DNA of 28,344 bases from NCBI GenBank assembly GCA_048938445.1, contig JBHLME010000055.1:1-28344 (forward strand), in the 5' to 3' direction. Made by a program: the position numbers and the translations under genes. This stretch comes from Promethearchaeota archaeon (lineage in GTDB: Archaea > Asgardarchaeota > Lokiarchaeia > Sigyniarchaeales > SOKP01). The notes beneath the pieces were generated by a model that saw only the letters and a program-made list of their open reading frames with translations, was not told where the DNA came from and ran no database searches. Each line of letters begins with the position of its first letter. Positions within the stretch are counted from its first letter, which is position 1. Positions 4,357 through 15,269 of the stretch are shown here, piece after piece.

Positions 4357-6033
4357 CTATAAGAAGTTCATCCAATCTGGATTTATCTTATTTAAAGATA
4401 GTTCAACTTCTTTACGCACGTTCCAATCATCATCTCCTAAACTTTCAATAAGTGGCTTTAAAGCTTCTTCATTACCAATATCCCCAAGTGCTTTTATTGC
4501 AGATATTCGGAGCATTACATTGCTGTCCTTTAACATCATAAGTAGTGGCTCAATATTTTTTAAATCTTTAAGTTTACCTAATGCTTTTGCTGCCCAACCT
4601 TTCACGTAGGGATCTTCGTCATTTAAGCAAGGAATTAAAAGTTCAAGAGACTCATCATTCCCTATTTTTATTAAAAGATTTACAGCTGATCTCTTGGATT
4701 TCCAATCTTCATGATCTAAATATTCTTTTGCAATATTTATTACTTTTTCATTTGAAAATTTTGCTAAACTACTTGTTGCTGACTTTCTCACTCCGCTTTT
4801 AGTATCTTTTAATAAATTAAATAACGCTATGATTGAGTCTTCATCTTTAATGAATCCTAGTGTTCGAGCAACATATTTTCTTATCTGCCATTCTTTAGAA
4901 TTTAAGGCCATTAATAATTTCTTTTTTGCATTCTCGTGTTTTTTTGTGATTTTTATAATTGATGATACTGCTGCTCTTCTTATTCCAGAATTCTTACTAT
5001 TGAGTAAATTTATTAATACTTCTATAGAATCTGGTCTCGCAAGCATCCCCATTACTTTTGCTGCACCTCTTCTTACATTTATATTGCCTTTTTTTGCTAG
5101 GTTATGAACAACATTAAGAGAGGATAAATTATTTAATATTTTAGAAAGAGATTTAATAATTAATTTTTGAAGGCTATCGTCCTCCATTTTTAATAATTCA
5201 AACATTGGTTTTATTGCTTTTTCACTCTCAACAGATCCTAATACATTTATAACAGTCTCTTTTACTTCATTACTAGGATCATTTAGCATTTTAATAAGAA
5301 TATCAACATCTTCAGGATTAATTAAATTTTTTAATGCTTCTACAGCATTTTTTCTTACTATAATATTATCATCTTTTAAAAAATTAATTATATCTTCTTT
5401 AACTTCTTTGATTCCTATCTTCCCTAAAATTATTGGAATAGATTTGTTTATATTAACATTACCTTCATTTTTAAATTCAAGAATATCTTGAATATTTCCT
5501 TTTTTAGCTATTTTTACAATAAGATTTATTAAAAGGTCATGAATCTCTAAATTTCGAAATTTTAATTGTTCAAAGAGTGGATTTAAAGCTTTATTAGGTA
5601 AAATACCAACTTTACTCAAATAGATTATAGAGGTTTTTTTTATTTCAAGATCATTATCTTCCATTGCTTCAAGTAAAAAGTGAACCGCTTCTTCTTTTTT
5701 TATAGATCCCACGTTTTCTAAAATAGATTTTCTTACTTTCCAATCATTTTCATTATTATATTGTTCCATTAAAAATGTGAGGCCATCATTTTCATAATTT
5801 TTGACTAATAATTGAATTAAGTTAATCTTTGTTTTAGGATGAATTTCGTTTAAGTAAGCACTTTTTACTTGTATAAATTGACTAACATCATCATAATTTA
5901 ATAATAATTCAGCAGCTTTAGATCTTTCTTGCCATTCATTAGAAGTTAAGAGTATGGATAAAAGAGATTCAAATGCTTCTCGAGAATCCATAGTTTTAAT
6001 CTTTTCAAATAATTTTTCATTATAGGAACTCAT
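4357..6033 (-). CDS. HEAT/PBS-lyase repeat alpha-solenoid protein
   Basis: Many ~31-aa repeats over 558 aa, e.g. LKDDNIIVRKNAVEALK, LNDEDPYVKGWAAKALG, LGDDDWNVRKEV. Confidence 0.92.
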   Translation of the reverse strand: MSSYNEKLFEKIKTMDSREAFESLLSILLTSNEWQERSKAAELLLNYDDVSQFIQVKSAYLNEIHPKTKINLIQLLVKNYENDGLTFLMEQYNNENDWKVRKSILENVGSIKKEEAVHFLLEAMEDNDLEIKKTSIIYLSKVGILPNKALNPLFEQLKFRNLEIHDLLINLIVKIAKKGNIQDILEFKNEGNVNINKSIPIILGKIGIKEVKEDIINFLKDDNIIVRKNAVEALKNLINPEDVDILIKMLNDPSNEVKETVINVLGSVESEKAIKPMFELLKMEDDSLQKLIIKSLSKILNNLSSLNVVHNLAKKGNINVRRGAAKVMGMLARPDSIEVLINLLNSKNSGIRRAAVSSIIKITKKHENAKKKLLMALNSKEWQIRKYVARTLGFIKDEDSIIALFNLLKDTKSGVRKSATSSLAKFSNEKVINIAKEYLDHEDWKSKRSAVNLLIKIGNDESLELLIPCLNDEDPYVKGWAAKALGKLKDLKNIEPLLMMLKDSNVMLRISAIKALGDIGNEEALKPLIESLGDDDWNVRKEVELSLNKINPDWMNFL

Positions 6034-6091: not shown

Positions 6092-6379
6092 CTAATGTTT
6101 ATTTATATTTGTAGAAAAGAGAAAAAGCTGTTTTTTGAAAAAACGATCAACAATATTAAATCTATCTAAAATAAAAGAAAAATTAGTTTTTTTAGTTCGA
6201 TCTACTATTAAAGTCCCTCTAACACTTACATCTTCAAGAGAAAATGCCTTAATAGATATTTCAATATGTTTCTTCGGAATTTTATAAATATTTTCGAGAA
6301 TATCTGTCATTTTTTTTACCATGCTCCTTTTTAAATTTAAGTCCAATGTTTTTAGACCATCTATTATTAAGCTTGGTAA
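6092..6379 (-). CDS. 4-oxalocrotonate tautomerase (DmpI)-like protein; non-canonical start or decaying pseudogene
   Basis: Extending the track ORF 11 codons upstream gives (L)PSLIIDGLKTLDLNLKRSMVKKMTDILENIYKIPKKHIEISIKAFSLEDVSVRGTLIVDR, which fits the 4-OT beta-alpha-beta pattern with Pro-1. The codon before Pro is TTA, and the one before that is an in-frame TAA. Confidence 0.6.
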   Translation of the reverse strand, partial: LPSLIIDGLKTLDLNLKRSMVKKMTDILENIYKIPKKHIEISIKAFSLEDVSVRGTLIVDRTKKTNFSFILDRFNIVDRFFKKQLFLFSTNINKH

Positions 6380-6470: not shown

Positions 6471-6731
6471 TTAAGCACTAATTAGACGAAATATCATGTT
6501 TGAATGAGGAATTACGAATTGATCCTTGGTTTTGATGATTACGGTGTGGAAATATTCCGCCAGTCCAAGGAATCCACGTATAACGCTCTCATCTTCTTCA
6601 AACTTAAAGGTTACTGACACATTCGAAGATCCGACCGCAACTTTGTCATATACTCTTTCGTCAATTAGTGGGATTTTCAGCTCATTTACAATCTCATATA
6701 CTCTTTTTATGAAGAGTTCCTTTTTTGCGAT
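6471..6731 (-). CDS. Unannotated 86-aa hypothetical protein with a probable ATC start
   Basis: Open frame (I/M)AKKELFIKRVYEIVNELKIPLIDERVYDKVAVGSSNVSVTFKFEEDESVIRGFLGLAEYFHTVIIKTKDQFVIPHSNMIFRLISA*. AGGTGA lies 6 nt upstream of the ATC, and its TGA is an in-frame stop. GC is higher than in the flanks, and a T-rich tract follows the stop. Confidence 0.75.
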   Translation of the reverse strand: MAKKELFIKRVYEIVNELKIPLIDERVYDKVAVGSSNVSVTFKFEEDESVIRGFLGLAEYFHTVIIKTKDQFVIPHSNMIFRLISA

Positions 6732-6744
6732 GATTAATCACCTA

Positions 6745-7046: not shown

Positions 7047-7757
7047 GTGTTAAACTTGGTAACTAAAGAAGAAAAGAAATTAAATCGTGTTATAAATTTT
7101 GTAAAGAAGGGATTAGCAGGCTTAGCAGATGAACTTGAGGGTACTGTAAAAGCAATTAATGATTTCACAAAATCCTTGCAGAAAGCTCAAAAAGATTTAA
7201 AGGATGTTTCTGTTGATACCGAAGTCATGACAATAAGTACTTCCTCTAAAATGGTTGCTGGCAGAACAGAAACCGTAGCGAAAACAGCAGCGGCAAATAC
7301 ACTATTCTCTTTATTAAGTGGTAGTGAAGGTACTGCACAAGCTGGACCACAAATGACTGCTGCACCTACACCCCCTGTATCTGCAAGTGGTGGACCTCCA
7401 AAGGCTCCCGGTGGTGGACCTCCAAAAGCTCCCGGTGGTGGACCTCCAAAAGCTCCCGGTGGTGGACCTCCAATAGCTCCTGGTGGTGGACCTCCAAAAG
7501 CTCCCGGTGGTGGACCTCCGAAACGCGGTAATTTACCTCCAGCGCCTAAATTACCTCCTACAGGTGGTGGACCTCCAAAAGCTCCCGGTGGTGGACCCCC
7601 TTCTGCTCATGCTCGGCGTCCATCAGCTCCACCCGCGCCTCCTGGAGGAGGTGCTGCTTCGATAGCTCCAAAAGCGGGTGGTGGATTGAGCTCACTAAGA
7701 GATGAAATGTTGGATGAATTAACTCGGTTAAAGAAAATAATGCGCGGAGAATCGTAA
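7047..7757 (+). CDS. Pro/Gly-rich protein: N-terminal coiled coil, GGPPKAPG repeats and a C-terminal WH2/GAB-like motif; candidate actin regulator
   Basis: Residues ~5-55 are heptad-like. PPAPP lies shortly before the terminal GGGLSSLRDEMLDELTRLKKIMRGES. GAGG RBS precedes the GTG start. The gene is adjacent to an actin-family gene. Confidence 0.7.
   Translation: MLNLVTKEEKKLNRVINFVKKGLAGLADELEGTVKAINDFTKSLQKAQKDLKDVSVDTEVMTISTSSKMVAGRTETVAKTAAANTLFSLLSGSEGTAQAGPQMTAAPTPPVSASGGPPKAPGGGPPKAPGGGPPKAPGGGPPIAPGGGPPKAPGGGPPKRGNLPPAPKLPPTGGGPPKAPGGGPPSAHARRPSAPPAPPGGGAASIAPKAGGGLSSLRDEMLDELTRLKKIMRGES
7386..7601 (+). repeat. 24-bp coding tandem repeat (GGTGGACCTCCAAAAGCTCCCGGT; GGPPKAPG)
   Basis: Five near-identical units start at 7389, 7413, 7437, 7461 and 7485, with a partial unit at 7509. 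A further full unit lies at 7566-7589, followed by a partial one. Confidence 0.95.
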
Positions 7758-7882
7758 AATAGTAATTTTTTAATTTCTTTTTCTATCCTTTTAATTTTGT
7801 CTTATTTTATTTATTCCATAAACGTAAATTTAAATTACTTTTAGTAATAATTAAAATAAGAATAATATATTTTATGATATAG

Positions 7883-9001
7883 ATGCCGAATCTTACTGTT
7901 GTTTTAGATATTGGTCAATTTTCCTCAAAAATAGGTTTTGCAGGTGAAGATTCTCCTTCCAACGTTTTTTATACAATTGTTGGAAAGCCAAAATATCAAA
8001 ATCTTAGCGCCCAAGATGGTATCAAGCAAGAACAAGAATTATATGTCGGGGCTGAAATTCAATCATTAGGATTATTCAAAATCATTTCTCCAATAAAGAA
8101 TGGCACAATCGTTGATTGGGACTATTTTGAGAAAATCATAGATTATATTTTTTATAATTTAAGAGTAGATCCTACTTTAGTGAATGTTTTGTATTCCATT
8201 CATCCACTATTTCCATCTGAAGAATTAAAAAAATTATTTGAGTTCTTTTTAGAACGATATCAATGTATGGCGTTTTATCCTGTATTGGATTCTCAATTAA
8301 CTCTATATTCAGGGGGATTTCAAACAGGATTAATAATTGAACTAGGAGATAGTAGCACTAGAATCGTTCCGATTTATGAAGGATACAAATTAAACCATGC
8401 CATTAAAATCTTGGAAATGGGTGGTCGTGTTTTAACAAAACATATGGAGAAAATACTTGGTTCAATTGGTTTTTCAGTTGATTCTTCAATTAGAAAAGAA
8501 CTAGTTAGAGTTCTTAAAGAAAGAGCCTGTTTTGTATCGTTGGATTATAAAGAAGATTTAAGAAGGTATGAACAATATAGCAAACAATTTTCCTTACCCG
8601 ATGGATCAGTCATAACCCTAGATAAAGAAAGGTTCATGTTAACCGAAGCATTATTCGATCCTTCAATGGTTAATTTAGAAGAGGTATCATTACCTAAGGC
8701 AATCATAAATTCCATAGAAGAATGCGATTTAGATATTCGTCCAAAGTTATTAAATAATATTTTTCTTTCGGGGGGTTCTTCTATGTTTCCAAATCTTAAA
8801 TCAAGAATCTATAAAGAATTAGAATTAGAATTAGCCAGAAGAAAAAAAAAAGATCAAGCAGTAAAAATTATTGCGCCTAGAGAACGTACTTTTTCAGTGT
8901 GGATTGGGGGTTCAATATTAGCTACTATTCCAGAATTTGCTGATAATTGGGTTACACGAGCTAAATATTTTAGAGATGGTATACCTGAAGGTCTTTTATA
9001 A
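7883..9001 (+). CDS. Actin-family protein (divergent Asgard actin-related protein)
   Basis: Colinear with eukaryotic actin: VVLDIGQFSSKIGFAGEDSP, IVGKPK, LYVGAE, IVDWD, IVPIYEGY, KERACFVSLDY, LPDGSVI, CDLDIR, LSGGSSMFP, KIIAPRERTFSVWIGGSILA. Confidence 0.95.
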   Translation: MPNLTVVLDIGQFSSKIGFAGEDSPSNVFYTIVGKPKYQNLSAQDGIKQEQELYVGAEIQSLGLFKIISPIKNGTIVDWDYFEKIIDYIFYNLRVDPTLVNVLYSIHPLFPSEELKKLFEFFLERYQCMAFYPVLDSQLTLYSGGFQTGLIIELGDSSTRIVPIYEGYKLNHAIKILEMGGRVLTKHMEKILGSIGFSVDSSIRKELVRVLKERACFVSLDYKEDLRRYEQYSKQFSLPDGSVITLDKERFMLTEALFDPSMVNLEEVSLPKAIINSIEECDLDIRPKLLNNIFLSGGSSMFPNLKSRIYKELELELARRKKKDQAVKIIAPRERTFSVWIGGSILATIPEFADNWVTRAKYFRDGIPEGLL

Positions 9002-9171: not shown

Positions 9172-9549
9172 TTGGAAAATATAAATAAAGAAAAGATTGA
9201 TGATTCTCTAAATGCTCAAGATGAGAAATATCAAGATGATTCAAACTTATTCAATAAAATTAAAGGAATTAAAACACCAGTAAAAAATGAACTTCTAATG
9301 ACTTTATTAGATGGTGAATGGCACTCTGAATCTGAATTAATAAGAATCGCCAAAAAACAACGTCAATATGCAGGCGCAGTATTAGTAGGCACGATGTTAA
9401 ACTCAATTAATGCACTTAGTCAGCAGGTATTCTTAATGAAAATAATTATTAATGGAGAATGGCATTTTAAGATATCTGATAATTATGTCGGTTTGACTCG
9501 AGCGGCATATACTAAATCTGCATATAAGAATTTTGCTCGTCTGGATTAA
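9172..9549 (+). CDS. Small protein, probable winged-helix fold
   Basis: KNELLMTLLDGEWHSESELIRIAKK...helix...LMKIIINGEWHFKI resembles a wHTH with a beta-wing. AGGTGA RBS precedes the TTG start. Confidence 0.55.
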   Translation: MENINKEKIDDSLNAQDEKYQDDSNLFNKIKGIKTPVKNELLMTLLDGEWHSESELIRIAKKQRQYAGAVLVGTMLNSINALSQQVFLMKIIINGEWHFKISDNYVGLTRAAYTKSAYKNFARLD

Positions 9550-11834: not shown

Positions 11835-14800
11835 TTATATTGGTAAGGTGAAGTAAAATTCAGCTCCACGATTTTTTCCTCGTGATTCAACCCATATTTT
11901 ACCTCCATGAGCTTCTATAATTCCCTTAGTGATATATAACCCTAAACCACTTCCCTTTTCTAAATTAGAGAAATTTTCAATATCTTGATCAATCATCACG
12001 AATTTTCCAAAAAGTTGATGTATTTCTGAGTCAGTTAAACCTATTCCAAAATCCTTAATTTTAAAAATTTGAAAGTTTTGTCTTTTATCGGTTGAGATAT
12101 GGATTTGACCGCCATTTTTTGAAAATTTTATAGCATTAGAAAAGAGGTTAGAAAAGACTTGTGAAATACGAAATGCGTCAATATTCAATGGTAAATATTT
12201 ATCTATTAATACTTCTACTTTGATGTTTTTTTCATGGAGTTGAAAATTTAATTCGGATATGCAATTTTCTATTATCTCACAAATATTTTCGATCTTAAGA
12301 TTTAATTCTATTTTTTTAGCATCTATTTTCATTACATCCATTAATTGCTCTATATAACGTTCTAATCGAGATGCATTCCTCAGTGATCTTGATAAATCAT
12401 TTAATGTCTCAACCTTCAAATCATTATCCCTAGTAATAACTAGATCCAAATATCCGATAATTGAGATCAAGGGTGTTTTTAATTCATGAGCAGCGATAGT
12501 AATGAAATCCGATTTTAATTTATCTAATTTTTTCAGTTCAATATTCTGTTCGCGTAATTTCCTCTCAGATTCTATTAAGCTTTCTTCAAATTTTTTCTTA
12601 TCTGTTATATCAACAGTCATCGCTAGAAGCGCGGGATGTTCTTGATAAATCATATCCTTGAAATATACATCTAACCAACGTATTTTATTACTTTTTGTTA
12701 TTATTTTAAAACTTACTTGAGCTGTATAAGGTTCTTCATTAATTCCAGTTTCTTGAGCTCTCGTTATTTCTACTAAGTTATTCATGATAAAAAGGAAATC
12801 ATCTGGATGGAATATTTTTTTCATTTCAAATCTTTTCCATTGCCTTATCTCATCTATAGAATACTCAATTAATAATGATAAAGCATTATTGGCATATTTT
12901 ATAACGCCATTTTGGATTATTGCTATTCCCATTAATGCTTGCTCCGCAATTGTTCTGAATCTAATTTCTGATTCTTTTAATTTCATTTGAACTAAATTTC
13001 GATCAGTAATATCTTCTGAAGTACAAATTACATATTCAACTTCTCCATTTTCATCTAATTTTGGAGTTTTTGTTACTGAAAATAATCTTTGATCGCCCTC
13101 CTTACTTGTAACCCATTCTTCTGTTTTAATTTTTATTTTTTCAGTAAATACGATATGATTTCCTTCAATACATTTTTCATATTCCTCCTTTATTCGAAAA
13201 TTACTTATTTTTTTATTTTCAATGTCTTGTTGATCAATTCCAATAAATTCTGCGTGCGCTTTGTTTATAGCACCATAAGTATCCTCCGATTTTAAATACC
13301 AAATCTGAGTATTTGTATTATCTAAAAGTAATGCTTGCTCGTCCGATTTACGCTGTAATAATTCTTTTGACTTTTTTAATTCATTTGTTCTTTTTTCAAT
13401 TTCGTTTTCAAGCAGTTTATTGAATTTTTTTAAATTTTCTTCTCCTTTTTTAGTATCTGTTATATCCATTGTGATAAATAAATCAGCAACTTTTCCCATA
13501 AAGGGAATGGTCTTTGAAATACTCTTAAACCATCGAGTTCTACCACTCTTTGTAATGATCCTATATTGAAAATGTAGATAATTATTATTTTCACCAGCTT
13601 TTCTTTTAGATATAGCCATTATAAAGGGTTTTATATCATCTGGGTGTATGATTTTTAAGAAATCTTTAACTTTCCAATTTTTAACTTCATTTTGAGTGAA
13701 ACCGATTAATTCAACTGCTCTCTGATTAATGTATTTAATATCATAATCTTGAAAAATACATATACCAACCCAAGATCTTTCAGCTATAGAACGGAATTTT
13801 TCTTCAGACTCTTGTAATTTTATTTCAGTTTGTTTTCTGTCATCAATATCTTGAATAATTACCTGTATGAAATTATCTTCTCCTAATTTAATTAGTGAAC
13901 CATGATAATGAACCCATTTCATTTCACCATCTTTAGTATATAGTTGTATGTCTCTCTCGGGATTTTCTCCTTCAAATAATCTTTTAAAATCTTCCGTAAC
14001 TTCAGGAATATATTGCTTTGGGAGGCCAGAAACTTGAAGGAAATTTTTATATAATAAATCACTTCTAGAAAATCCCGATAAAAATTCACTAGATCGGTTA
14101 CATTCTATTATTTCTCCATTGCTATTCATTATAAGTATTGCATTTGGAGATCTTTCAAATAAATTTCTAAATTTTTTCTCAGATTTAATTAATCTATCTT
14201 CTGAAATTTTGTGTTCGGTTATATCTCTTGAAATTATAAGTTGTTTATTCTTACCATCTGTATCATTAAATGTCTTACCTTTAATTTCAAAAGTTTTAAA
14301 TGTTCCATCCTTAAATTGAACAGTTACTTCTTGATTTTTAATTCCCTCGATTATATAAGAACATTTAAGATTAACATATTCAGAAATTTGTTCTTTTGTG
14401 AAACCAAATAAATCCTTTAACACATCATCATTCAAATAATCTGTTATAATTGAATCTCCCTCACGTATTAATATTAAATCTTGAGTATGATTCATGATGA
14501 TCTTGAATAAATGTGCAGCTTCTTTAACTTTTTTTTCTGCTAACTTCCGTTCTGTTATATCTCGTAATGTTAGCAAGATTTTTAATTTTCCAGAATAGCT
14601 TTTAAAAATTTTTCCAAAAACTTCAAACCAATGCCAAAATCCATCTTTATGATTTAATCTAATATCAATTGAGTCATCTTTTTTATCATTAAGGTTTTTT
14701 AGGAAAATTTTAAATTCTTTCCTCTCGTCAGGATGATTAAATTTTAAAAATTTTTTATTTAGAACACTATCTTCAGAATATCCTAATGCTTTAAAAAAAC

Positions 14801-15269
14801 TAGTTTGGTTTACATATTCAATTTTTAATTTTTGATCTAATACTATTATTAAATCTCTCAAGTTTTCGTGTATTAGCGGTAATATTTCTATATTTTTCAA
14901 AAGTTGCGTCTCATTTACGTTAACAATGTTAATCAGCTTTGTTATACCTCGATAACCTTTAAAATTTTTATCCTCATCATAAAATGGTATAGCATTGATA
15001 TTATAATAAACTAAATAACCGTTTACATCAGAAAATTTAGTTTTAAAATCTATAATAGGTTCTTTATTTGTTAAATATTTTCGAGGGACAATTTCAAATA
15101 AATTTTTTTCTAAGAATTGTATGAATGTATAACCATGAAATATTTTAGAATGTTTTTTGTAATATGTAAAATTTCCAAATTCATCGGTTTCCCAAACCCA
15201 ATCACTTATATGTCTGATTATTTCACTACTAATTTCCATTAATTTTGATAAATAAGATGGTTCAATCAA
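11835..15269 (-). CDS. Cytoplasmic multi-PAS sensor histidine kinase
   Basis: About seven PAS/PAC units, several ending in DITE/DITD. H-box AAHELKTPL, N-box FSNAIKFS, DFGIG and GSGLGLYI. No TM segment seen. Confidence 0.93.
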   Translation of the reverse strand: MIEPSYLSKLMEISSEIIRHISDWVWETDEFGNFTYYKKHSKIFHGYTFIQFLEKNLFEIVPRKYLTNKEPIIDFKTKFSDVNGYLVYYNINAIPFYDEDKNFKGYRGITKLINIVNVNETQLLKNIEILPLIHENLRDLIIVLDQKLKIEYVNQTSFFKALGYSEDSVLNKKFLKFNHPDERKEFKIFLKNLNDKKDDSIDIRLNHKDGFWHWFEVFGKIFKSYSGKLKILLTLRDITERKLAEKKVKEAAHLFKIIMNHTQDLILIREGDSIITDYLNDDVLKDLFGFTKEQISEYVNLKCSYIIEGIKNQEVTVQFKDGTFKTFEIKGKTFNDTDGKNKQLIISRDITEHKISEDRLIKSEKKFRNLFERSPNAILIMNSNGEIIECNRSSEFLSGFSRSDLLYKNFLQVSGLPKQYIPEVTEDFKRLFEGENPERDIQLYTKDGEMKWVHYHGSLIKLGEDNFIQVIIQDIDDRKQTEIKLQESEEKFRSIAERSWVGICIFQDYDIKYINQRAVELIGFTQNEVKNWKVKDFLKIIHPDDIKPFIMAISKRKAGENNNYLHFQYRIITKSGRTRWFKSISKTIPFMGKVADLFITMDITDTKKGEENLKKFNKLLENEIEKRTNELKKSKELLQRKSDEQALLLDNTNTQIWYLKSEDTYGAINKAHAEFIGIDQQDIENKKISNFRIKEEYEKCIEGNHIVFTEKIKIKTEEWVTSKEGDQRLFSVTKTPKLDENGEVEYVICTSEDITDRNLVQMKLKESEIRFRTIAEQALMGIAIIQNGVIKYANNALSLLIEYSIDEIRQWKRFEMKKIFHPDDFLFIMNNLVEITRAQETGINEEPYTAQVSFKIITKSNKIRWLDVYFKDMIYQEHPALLAMTVDITDKKKFEESLIESERKLREQNIELKKLDKLKSDFITIAAHELKTPLISIIGYLDLVITRDNDLKVETLNDLSRSLRNASRLERYIEQLMDVMKIDAKKIELNLKIENICEIIENCISELNFQLHEKNIKVEVLIDKYLPLNIDAFRISQVFSNLFSNAIKFSKNGGQIHISTDKRQNFQIFKIKDFGIGLTDSEIHQLFGKFVMIDQDIENFSNLEKGSGLGLYITKGIIEAHGGKIWVESRGKNRGAEFYFTLPI

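Follow-up and report, generated by a model that had tools for sequence, protein, structure and literature searches.

The nearest characterized design to the protein considered here comes from an archaeal actin system. In Pyrobaculum, a helix of arcadin-2 has been shown experimentally to dock into the hydrophobic groove of crenactin (PDB 5LY3; PMC5173319). In the parts of the Asgard actin literature that were searched, the known actin regulators are profilins and gelsolins, with WH2-like motifs (LRRV, LKDV) found only inside the gelsolins (PMC7444086; 10.1101/2025.11.30.690169), and a brief remark in a 2021 paper has proline motifs occurring widely among Asgard proteins; the same parts describe no Asgard nucleation-promoting factor (NPF), nucleator, elongator, VASP, formin, or adaptor. 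Here, we analyzed a window of 28,344 nucleotides from a Promethearchaeota archaeon (the whole stretch, positions 1 to 28,344 of contig JBHLME010000055.1), in which an initial annotation, made from the letters alone, had proposed a candidate Ena/VASP- or WASP-like actin regulator encoded next to an actin-related protein (ARP). The gene in question, the proline-arm adaptor gene (hereafter FAM), represents a real, strongly conserved, and undescribed family of Asgard-archaeal proteins, the architecture of which is under strong selection; the annotation's remark that this architecture is not known to be characterized in archaea agrees with the literature searched, as far as it was covered. We consider it probable that FAM belongs to an Asgard-wide family of tethering adaptors with three parts: a head helix that works with a small companion protein (c3), an arm rich in proline, and a docking helix that is portable between proteins.

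A search among 5.8 billion proteins returned 204 homologues of FAM at E<=0.01, none of which carries a Pfam domain, and the named ones are all hypothetical proteins from Asgard (Promethearchaeota) bins. Across the phylum, the FAM profile matched 184 of 400 genomes. By GTDB family (numbered here, with f1 the family of the window's genome and f3 its sister), the matches amount to 118/134 genomes in f1, 14/14 in f3, 3/4 in f4, 2/2 in f7, 14/19 in f19, 2/3 in f26, and 4/4 in f27, and neither FAM nor c3 was found in the genomes of f15, f16, f24, and f25. The alignment retains four conserved blocks, specifically the head helix, a short AKTAAASTLFSLLSG helix, the LPPAPKLPP motif, and the C-terminal tail, and an AF2 model, built from a 26-sequence alignment, places helices only at the three segments listed in Table 1, with residues 91-213 otherwise disordered. 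In the ESM Atlas, the whole protein retrieved only its own Asgard clusters (at 0.78-0.96), and the structure rows were all at TM under 0.5.

Conservation within these blocks is residue-specific. The invariant positions of the head helix are K21, G22, L23, L26, D28, F40, S43, L44, K46, A47, D50, and L51, and those of the second helix are K79, A82, A83, T85, L86, L89, and L90. The hydrophobic pattern of the second helix (..TLFSLLSG), with its terminal Gly, is kept in all families (LLFNMLS, LIALLSG, LWTLLTG), and this helix may be a further docking site. In the arm, the number of GGPPKAP units differs among homologues, and the encoding 24-nt repeat accounts for the raised GC content of the arm kilobase (0.40 versus 0.24-0.31 in the adjoining 1-kb bins). 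P164, A166, and P167 of LPPAPKLPP are invariant, and L163, P165, K168, L169, P170, and P171 are present at >=90%; the f3 counterpart reads LPPPPKLPP or LPAPPKMPP. The start codon is more likely the TTG at 7056 than the GTG at 7047, because homologues begin MVSKE, the family profile matches from 7056, and the ESM Atlas entry begins at residue 4.

The tail carries a motif found in all 120 FAM homologues among the matches listed (of 204), in which the consensus reads GGGL[SG]SLRDEML[DE]EL[NTS]RLKKIMRG[DE]. Phylum-wide (16 sequences from nine families), L217, E220, M221, E224, R227, and K229 are invariant, and D219, D223, T226, and K230 vary. On a helical wheel, by our own reading, the invariant residues together with L225, L228, I231, and M232 would fall on one face, with the four variable positions opposite, and such one-sided conservation would be the signature of a helix lying in a groove. 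The LKKI near the end of the protein, which the initial annotation expected to be conserved in orthologues, is indeed kept in f1 (120/120 listed), f3, and f4, but it is altered elsewhere, to LKSI in f5 and f7, IKEI in f19, LKKL in f27, LKAL in f31, and LKRL in f9, such that K229 is the only one of its residues that is invariant.

Further, the tail is, judging from the sequences that carry it, a portable module, single or tandem, on otherwise unrelated Asgard proteins. A profile built from the nine-family tails and searched against 1.84 billion representatives recovered 50 proteins at E<=0.001, comprising 18 canonical FAM proteins, 16 short pieces, 15 proteins of other architectures, and 1 false match. 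Eight of the 50 are members of a zinc-ribbon family in which a disordered N-terminal region holds one or two strong tail copies, and in one of these (P0251) a Ras-family domain (Pfam Ras, 5.5e-10) precedes the tail region. In three others, the tail is combined with a membrane helix at the N-terminus, a coiled coil, and a stretch rich in Pro, while P0272 (549 aa) joins a membrane helix and a complete adaptor with its tail to a C-terminal TIR domain (TIR_2, 6.3e-18). One Ras-like protein, the Ras match of which is below the Pfam cut-off, ends in the tail; one tail-bearing protein holds three copies; and one carrier has, by our own reading, a head resembling ribose-phosphate isomerase. Strict and relaxed regular expressions found no second tail copy in the window's own genome.

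Several side observations concern these carriers. The zinc-ribbon proteins (P0245, P0249, P0251, P0256, P0274, P0282, P0286, and P0289) share the motif CPVCG...NH..YL.DFYF...IPCC.CFK and apparently hold further, degenerate tail copies. The carriers of f9 and f31 (L129, L131, and L133; P0264, P0266, and P0273) begin with a membrane helix and also contain a coiled coil and Pro-rich sequence, and their genes adjoin one encoding a ribose-5-phosphate-isomerase-like protein. Finally, in a Sec23/24-like protein of the window's genome (Sec23_trunk, 2.3e-9; contig C2, L157:259-1929), the internal helix NLLNLRNEMLSELNHLKKIS matches the tail profile at E 2.7e-4; no more than 3 of the 12 orthologues retain it, and it is only a lead.

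The steadiest genomic companion of FAM is c3, which emerged from clustering the neighbours of FAM in loci outside f1 as the one small open reading frame (ORF) that recurs beside it. It adjoins FAM, on either strand, in f5, f7, f19 (2/2 loci), and f27 (1/2), and it lies 3 kb from FAM in one of eight f3 loci. For f1, we scanned species-representative genomes with two tail peptide patterns, which yielded 109 relatives, and 80 loci were kept: c3 lies upstream within 1.5 kb in 64 of them and 1.5-3 kb away in 5, the contig ends first in 8, and c3 is on the other strand in 1 and was not found in 2. Its distribution (122/134 genomes in f1, 13/14 in f3, 3/4 in f4, 2/2 in f7, 16/19 in f19, 3/3 in f26, and 4/4 in f27) matches that of canonical FAM family by family, with the caveat that relatives are not independent. 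Of the 390 homologues of c3, the named ones are all hypothetical Asgard proteins, and no Pfam domain was detected in c3 or in any of them; close relatives share about 76-82% identity, and members of different families 34-61%. The structure of c3 is modelled with confidence (pLDDT 91.5), and the model matched no solved fold, with a best Foldseek E of 0.23 against the PDB and a best VIA-align Z of 4.4 (none at Z>=5 among 48,161 chains).

In the window, c3 is absent from the program-made ORF list because ATC stands where its same-genus orthologues have a TTG start; the region (6471-6737, minus strand) has no ATG, GTG, or TTG near that start. A GGTGA just upstream is kept in all three sequences (the window and two same-genus orthologues), and the ATC may serve as a near-cognate start or else represent a start codon that has been damaged. 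The possibility that c3 is frameshifted at an A7 run was considered and dropped, as the alignment with the same-genus orthologues shows TTG versus ATC instead, and an 84-aa ORF at 6092-6346 (minus strand) was rejected on alignment as a c3 homologue.

Table 1. Features of FAM and its surroundings in the 28,344-nt window
Feature	Position	Strand	Details
FAM (proline-arm adaptor gene)	7047..7757	+	236 aa from GTG 7047; 233 aa from TTG 7056
FAM N-terminal long helix, residues 7-52	7065..7202	+	predicted; AF2 model, pLDDT about 90
FAM second short helix, residues 76-90, AKTAAANTLFSLLSG	7272..7316	+	predicted; AF2, low confidence
FAM disordered Gly/Pro-rich arm, residues about 101-210	7347..7676	+	no secondary structure; pLDDT about 45-60
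24-nt tandem repeat encoding GGPPKAP units	7387-7523	+	5.7 copies, 94% identity
Conserved LPPAPKLPP, residues 163-171	7533..7559	+	within the arm; NLPPAPKLPP = residues 162-171
FAM putative C-terminal docking module GGGLSSLRDEMLDELTRLKKIMRGES, residues 211-236	7677..7754	+	motif in all listed homologues
Predicted C-terminal helix, residues 214-232	7686-7742	+	AF2; LKKI = residues 228-231 (7728-7739)
Spacer, FAM to actin paralogue	7758..7882		125 nt, AT-rich, T runs
Actin paralogue (Asgard ARP), 372 aa	7883..9001	+	Pfam Actin 1.3e-86, residues 5-363
c3, about 86-88 aa	6471..6731	-	divergent from FAM; recurrent neighbour in five families
125-aa ORF downstream of the actin paralogue	9172..9549	+	without Pfam match; kept in 73/80 loci
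HEAT-repeat protein, 558 aa, upstream	4357-6033	-	HEAT_2 2.1e-76; kept in 20/80 loci
1144-aa protein, downstream	11835-15269	-	read from its sequence as a multi-PAS sensor histidine kinase; kept in 50/80 loci

In the tethering adaptor that we propose, the head helix of FAM would oligomerise, bind c3, or do both; the arm would provide flexible spacing and might also be bound as a proline-motif ligand; and the end helix would use one of its faces to dock in a groove on a partner conserved throughout the phylum, which FAM would thereby gather or position. Whatever the tail binds is likely a hub of Asgard cell organisation, given the spread of the family over many Asgard lineages, the very strong constraint on its 19-residue helix, and the sharing of that helix with GTPase-type and membrane-anchored proteins. 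Two partners can be suggested tentatively and on an equal footing, specifically Lokiactin, the likeliest single candidate, with the tail lying in its hydrophobic groove in an arcadin-2- or WH2-like manner, and some other hub of the small-GTPase and trafficking machinery. It is distinctly unlikely that the partner is c3, and more unlikely still that it is the MIT domain of Vps4; membrane binding or self-association of the tail takes up what likelihood is left. Should the hub be Lokiactin, FAM would offer a testable precursor of modular actin recruitment, and should it be another, the helix would define an uncharacterised interaction network, with c3 as its second component, in the closest relatives of eukaryotes.

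Several observations weigh against this adaptor reading. The tail partner itself is a supposition drawn from conservation alone. In seven of eight f3 loci, c3 is not adjacent to FAM, and in three f3 genomes (G143, G138, and G141) it lies only 8-9 kb from the orthologue of the neighbouring actin paralogue, a proximity that may be the remnant of an older cluster. The f9 genomes that encode membrane-anchored tail carriers, although 94-97% complete, have c3 in 0/3. Lastly, the adjacency of FAM to the actin paralogue, seen in 76/80 loci, is strong within f1 and could still reflect function there.

The foremost rival explanation, which we judge unlikely, is an elaboration of the initial annotation, in which FAM would be an oligomeric actin assembly factor of the Ena/VASP or WASP-NPF kind, its arm loading profilin-actin and its helix with LKKI binding G-actin, to act on the paralogue or on Lokiactin. 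The sequence features from which this was drawn are in place: the Gly/Pro linker, the GGPPKAPG repeats, LPPAPKLPP, APPAPP, and the LKKI end all occur where they had been located, and the presumed coiled coil corresponds to the long predicted helix (pLDDT about 90), its helical nature being predicted by the model. A helical head, a Pro-rich arm, and a terminal amphipathic helix do fit such a factor. The tail may also resemble the VASP F-actin-binding motif, and the tandem tail copies on other proteins, with disordered linkers between them, form a layout that recalls tandem-WH2 nucleators.

Against this stand several comparisons with these families. In WH2, a helix of two to three turns is followed by a non-helical linker and an extended LKK[TV], and WASP/WAVE factors end in a V-C-A region whose acidic tail contains Trp. 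In the monomer model of FAM, which shows the free state and does not fix the bound one, LKKI lies inside one continuous predicted helix, with no Gly or Pro between helix and LKKI; the protein ends in RLKKIMRGES, a tail without Trp and without an acidic cluster. The profile searches that the annotation had suggested, against WH2 and VASP tetramerisation models, produced no match: no Pfam family exceeded its cut-off over the whole of FAM, neither WH2, WH1/EVH1, nor VASP_tetra matched at E<=1, and the 37-aa tail matched 0 Pfam families at E<=10, although short motifs can escape profiles. Against PDB sequences (E<=10), the tail profile found no WH2, thymosin, ciboulot, VASP, or MIM chain, its matches being coiled-coil fragments with a generic EL.RLK and nothing else. 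In LKKI, moreover, the second Lys and the Ile are unconserved phylum-wide. Of the profilin-loading site suggested at APPAPP, the sequence itself is present (residues 195-200), but it is unconserved in the homologue alignment, and the proline stretches of FAM are PP doublets only (GGPPKAP, LPPAPKLPP, APPAPP). As far as its sequence can tell, there is no support for placing FAM among WH2, Ena/VASP, or WASP proteins.

A link to actin could nonetheless run through the tail independently of those families. On this proposal, to which we give rather little weight, the tail helix (L..EM..E[LIM].R[LI]K) would be a module by which Asgard archaea recruit actin, equivalent in function to WH2 or to the helix of arcadin-2, and would be borne by an oligomeric proline-arm scaffold (FAM), membrane anchors, Ras/Arf-like GTPases, and, in tandem, zinc-ribbon regulators. 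If true, small-GTPase signalling and membranes would have been wired to Lokiactin assembly before eukaryotes, and in the FAM family archaea would have their first nucleation or elongation factor. An actin role for FAM draws further on the Ras-family tail carriers, set beside the enrichment of an Arf GTPase in a co-immunoprecipitation (co-IP) of Lokiactin from a cultured Asgard archaeon (10.1101/2025.11.30.690169), and on the arcadin-2 precedent of a C-terminal helix on an unstructured linker that occupies the crenactin groove (PMC5173319). Against it, FAM is not among the proteins that the preprint on this co-IP names in its main text, which are gelsolins, a profilin, and the Arf GTPase.

The remaining argument for an actin factor is the neighbouring gene. 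As the initial annotation described, the two genes are co-oriented and separated by 125 bp with T-rich sequence, the spacer being AT-rich with T runs, and the downstream gene is a clear member of the actin family (Table 1); FAM and this gene are probably separate transcription units. The window's genome has five actin-family matches, among which the window gene ranks second (285.9 bits versus 423.8 for a gene on contig C136, cut by the contig end). The C136 product is 100% identical over 358 residues to full-length orthologues in two other f1 genera (L141 and L142), and because of this identity across genera we take C136 to encode the main Lokiactin; Lokiactin identity to it is 91% in f3 and 70-82% in other families. 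This invariance within f1, in step with the invariant f1 tail, counts in favour of an actin partner. The window gene, 40% identical to Lokiactin, is a distinct, ARP-type Asgard paralogue, in keeping with the literature consulted, which calls such paralogues ARPs.

In 76 of the 80 related loci, FAM is followed on the same strand by an orthologue of the paralogue (63-80% identical), which favours an actin factor. Of the other four, two end <=453 nt past the gene, the third continues for only 2.1 kb downstream, and the fourth shows no actin gene in 4.1 kb. The two genes are separated by <=504 nt in 23 loci, by 852-1177 nt in 44, and by more than that in 9. In 49/80 loci, a co-oriented PIG-L deacetylase gene (Pfam PIG-L, 9.5e-24) stands between them; this member of the GlcNAc-PI de-N-acetylase family (for example, L008:6848-7528, among loci L006-L085) was found neither in the window nor in its genome (tblastn, E<=1e-10). 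A topoisomerase gene is kept in 70/80 loci. All of these loci have paralogue identities within the f1 range, and one (L006) coincides exactly with the f1 genome G235:C218; because the search patterns fit the f1-type tail only, the count over 80 loci is uninformative for other families.

Outside f1, this arrangement dissolves. Eighteen loci were inspected in eight further families (f3, f4, f5, f7, f9, f19, f27, and f31) over about 8 kb, or 1.5 kb for five short ones, and none has an actin gene, the 125-aa ORF, or the topoisomerase near FAM. Orthologues of the paralogue (48-80% identity) occur only in f1 and f3, the best match elsewhere (43-45%) being Lokiactin, and the f3 orthologues are 40-270 kb distant from FAM (at least 100 kb in G143 and G138, whose contigs allow measuring). 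Outside that one order, the paralogue has no orthologue, but the FAM family persists. With 76/80 loci in f1 versus 0/18 elsewhere, the adjacency is an inherited gene order in one GTDB family; the conservation that had been expected across Asgard genomes stands within f1 and fails in the others. The position of FAM beside the actin paralogue is no evidence of a dedicated pair, and reading FAM as an NPF beside an Arp, tempting as it is, depends on a gene order that only one family shares.

A few further observations concern the neighbourhood and its records. The full Asgard gene order occurs in L018, where the record title names a Nanopelagicaceae bacterium and the contig was probably binned wrongly, and several records titled as Thor-, Odin-, Hod-, or Hermodarchaeota hold the f1-type locus. 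A scan with bacterial-type models gave 22 promoter-like sites versus 17.2 expected and 0 terminators, but these models are not meaningful for an archaeon.

A second, quite improbable alternative is that the tail is a MIM1-like helix and LPPAPKLPP a MIM2-like motif, which would make FAM an adaptor or substrate linked to Vps4 and ESCRT. The genome of the window encodes Vps4, and its two ESCRT-III proteins end in ISELEKELDRLKQD and VQEEIEKLKKELNT, following GGALPSVVPE or GGAMPTIPEE, such that the pattern E..EL.RLK is common to ESCRT-III tails and the FAM tail. The eukaryotic MIM1 consensus nevertheless has a different spacing, and the FAM tail runs past MIM1 with a conserved IM.G. Further, among the genome's ORFs, the tail profile gives an ESCRT-III tail (contig C109) only 4.9 bits (E 12), and no ESCRT gene occurs in the FAM neighbourhood, in the window or in the related loci, although the Asgard Vps4 MIT domain is reported to bind Leu-rich C-terminal helices together with Pro-rich ESCRT-III motifs (PMC7240154). 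Lastly, that c3 is itself the tail receptor, closing a two-component module (auto-inhibited, or a scaffold presenting c3) unrelated to actin, is equally improbable, as the high conservation of c3, its matching distribution, and its adjacency to FAM in five families with differing orientations are offset by the presence of the tail on many other proteins, by the f9 tail carriers, which lack the FAM head and occur where c3 was not found (c3 is thus not the sole tail receptor), and by the chance that c3 may equally bind the head helix.

Compared with known systems, the tethering adaptor that we favour follows a familiar principle. In FtsZ, with its C-terminal linker and conserved C-terminal peptide, and in ParR-ParM, an assembling domain, a variable disordered spacer, and a short docking peptide are combined; FAM is like these in design principle only, and the sequences are unrelated. 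Like the EVH2 region of Ena/VASP, FAM has a helix proposed to oligomerise and a region rich in Gly and Pro, and its basic amphipathic helix likewise follows a Gly-rich spacer, but it has no EVH1, its coil is N-terminal rather than C-terminal, it has no long proline runs, and it gives no VASP_tetra match. With WH2 (PF02205; of the WASP, WIP, and thymosin-beta4 type), its tail shares a short amphipathic helix, an L-K-K-hydrophobic sequence, a Pro-rich neighbourhood, and tandem copies on some proteins, and it differs in lacking a profile match, in being predicted to run as one helix of about 19 residues through LKKI without a linker, and in leaving the second Lys and the Ile unconserved. The MIM1 tails of the Vps2/24/46 class of ESCRT-III, as described in PMC7240154, likewise consist of a terminal Leu-rich amphipathic helix on a flexible linker preceded by Pro motifs, but FAM has no ESCRT-III core, and the 4.9-bit tail match is not significant. 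The nearest characterized design appears, by analogy, to be arcadin-2. Both proteins carry a conserved terminal helix on an unstructured linker, and both are encoded beside an actin-family gene, in FAM within f1 only. Unlike FAM, arcadin-2 has no long Gly/Pro repeat arm, and its helix, the binding of which is shown by experiment, relies on Trp, whereas the FAM tail, known here from sequence and models, is without Trp and is portable across protein families.

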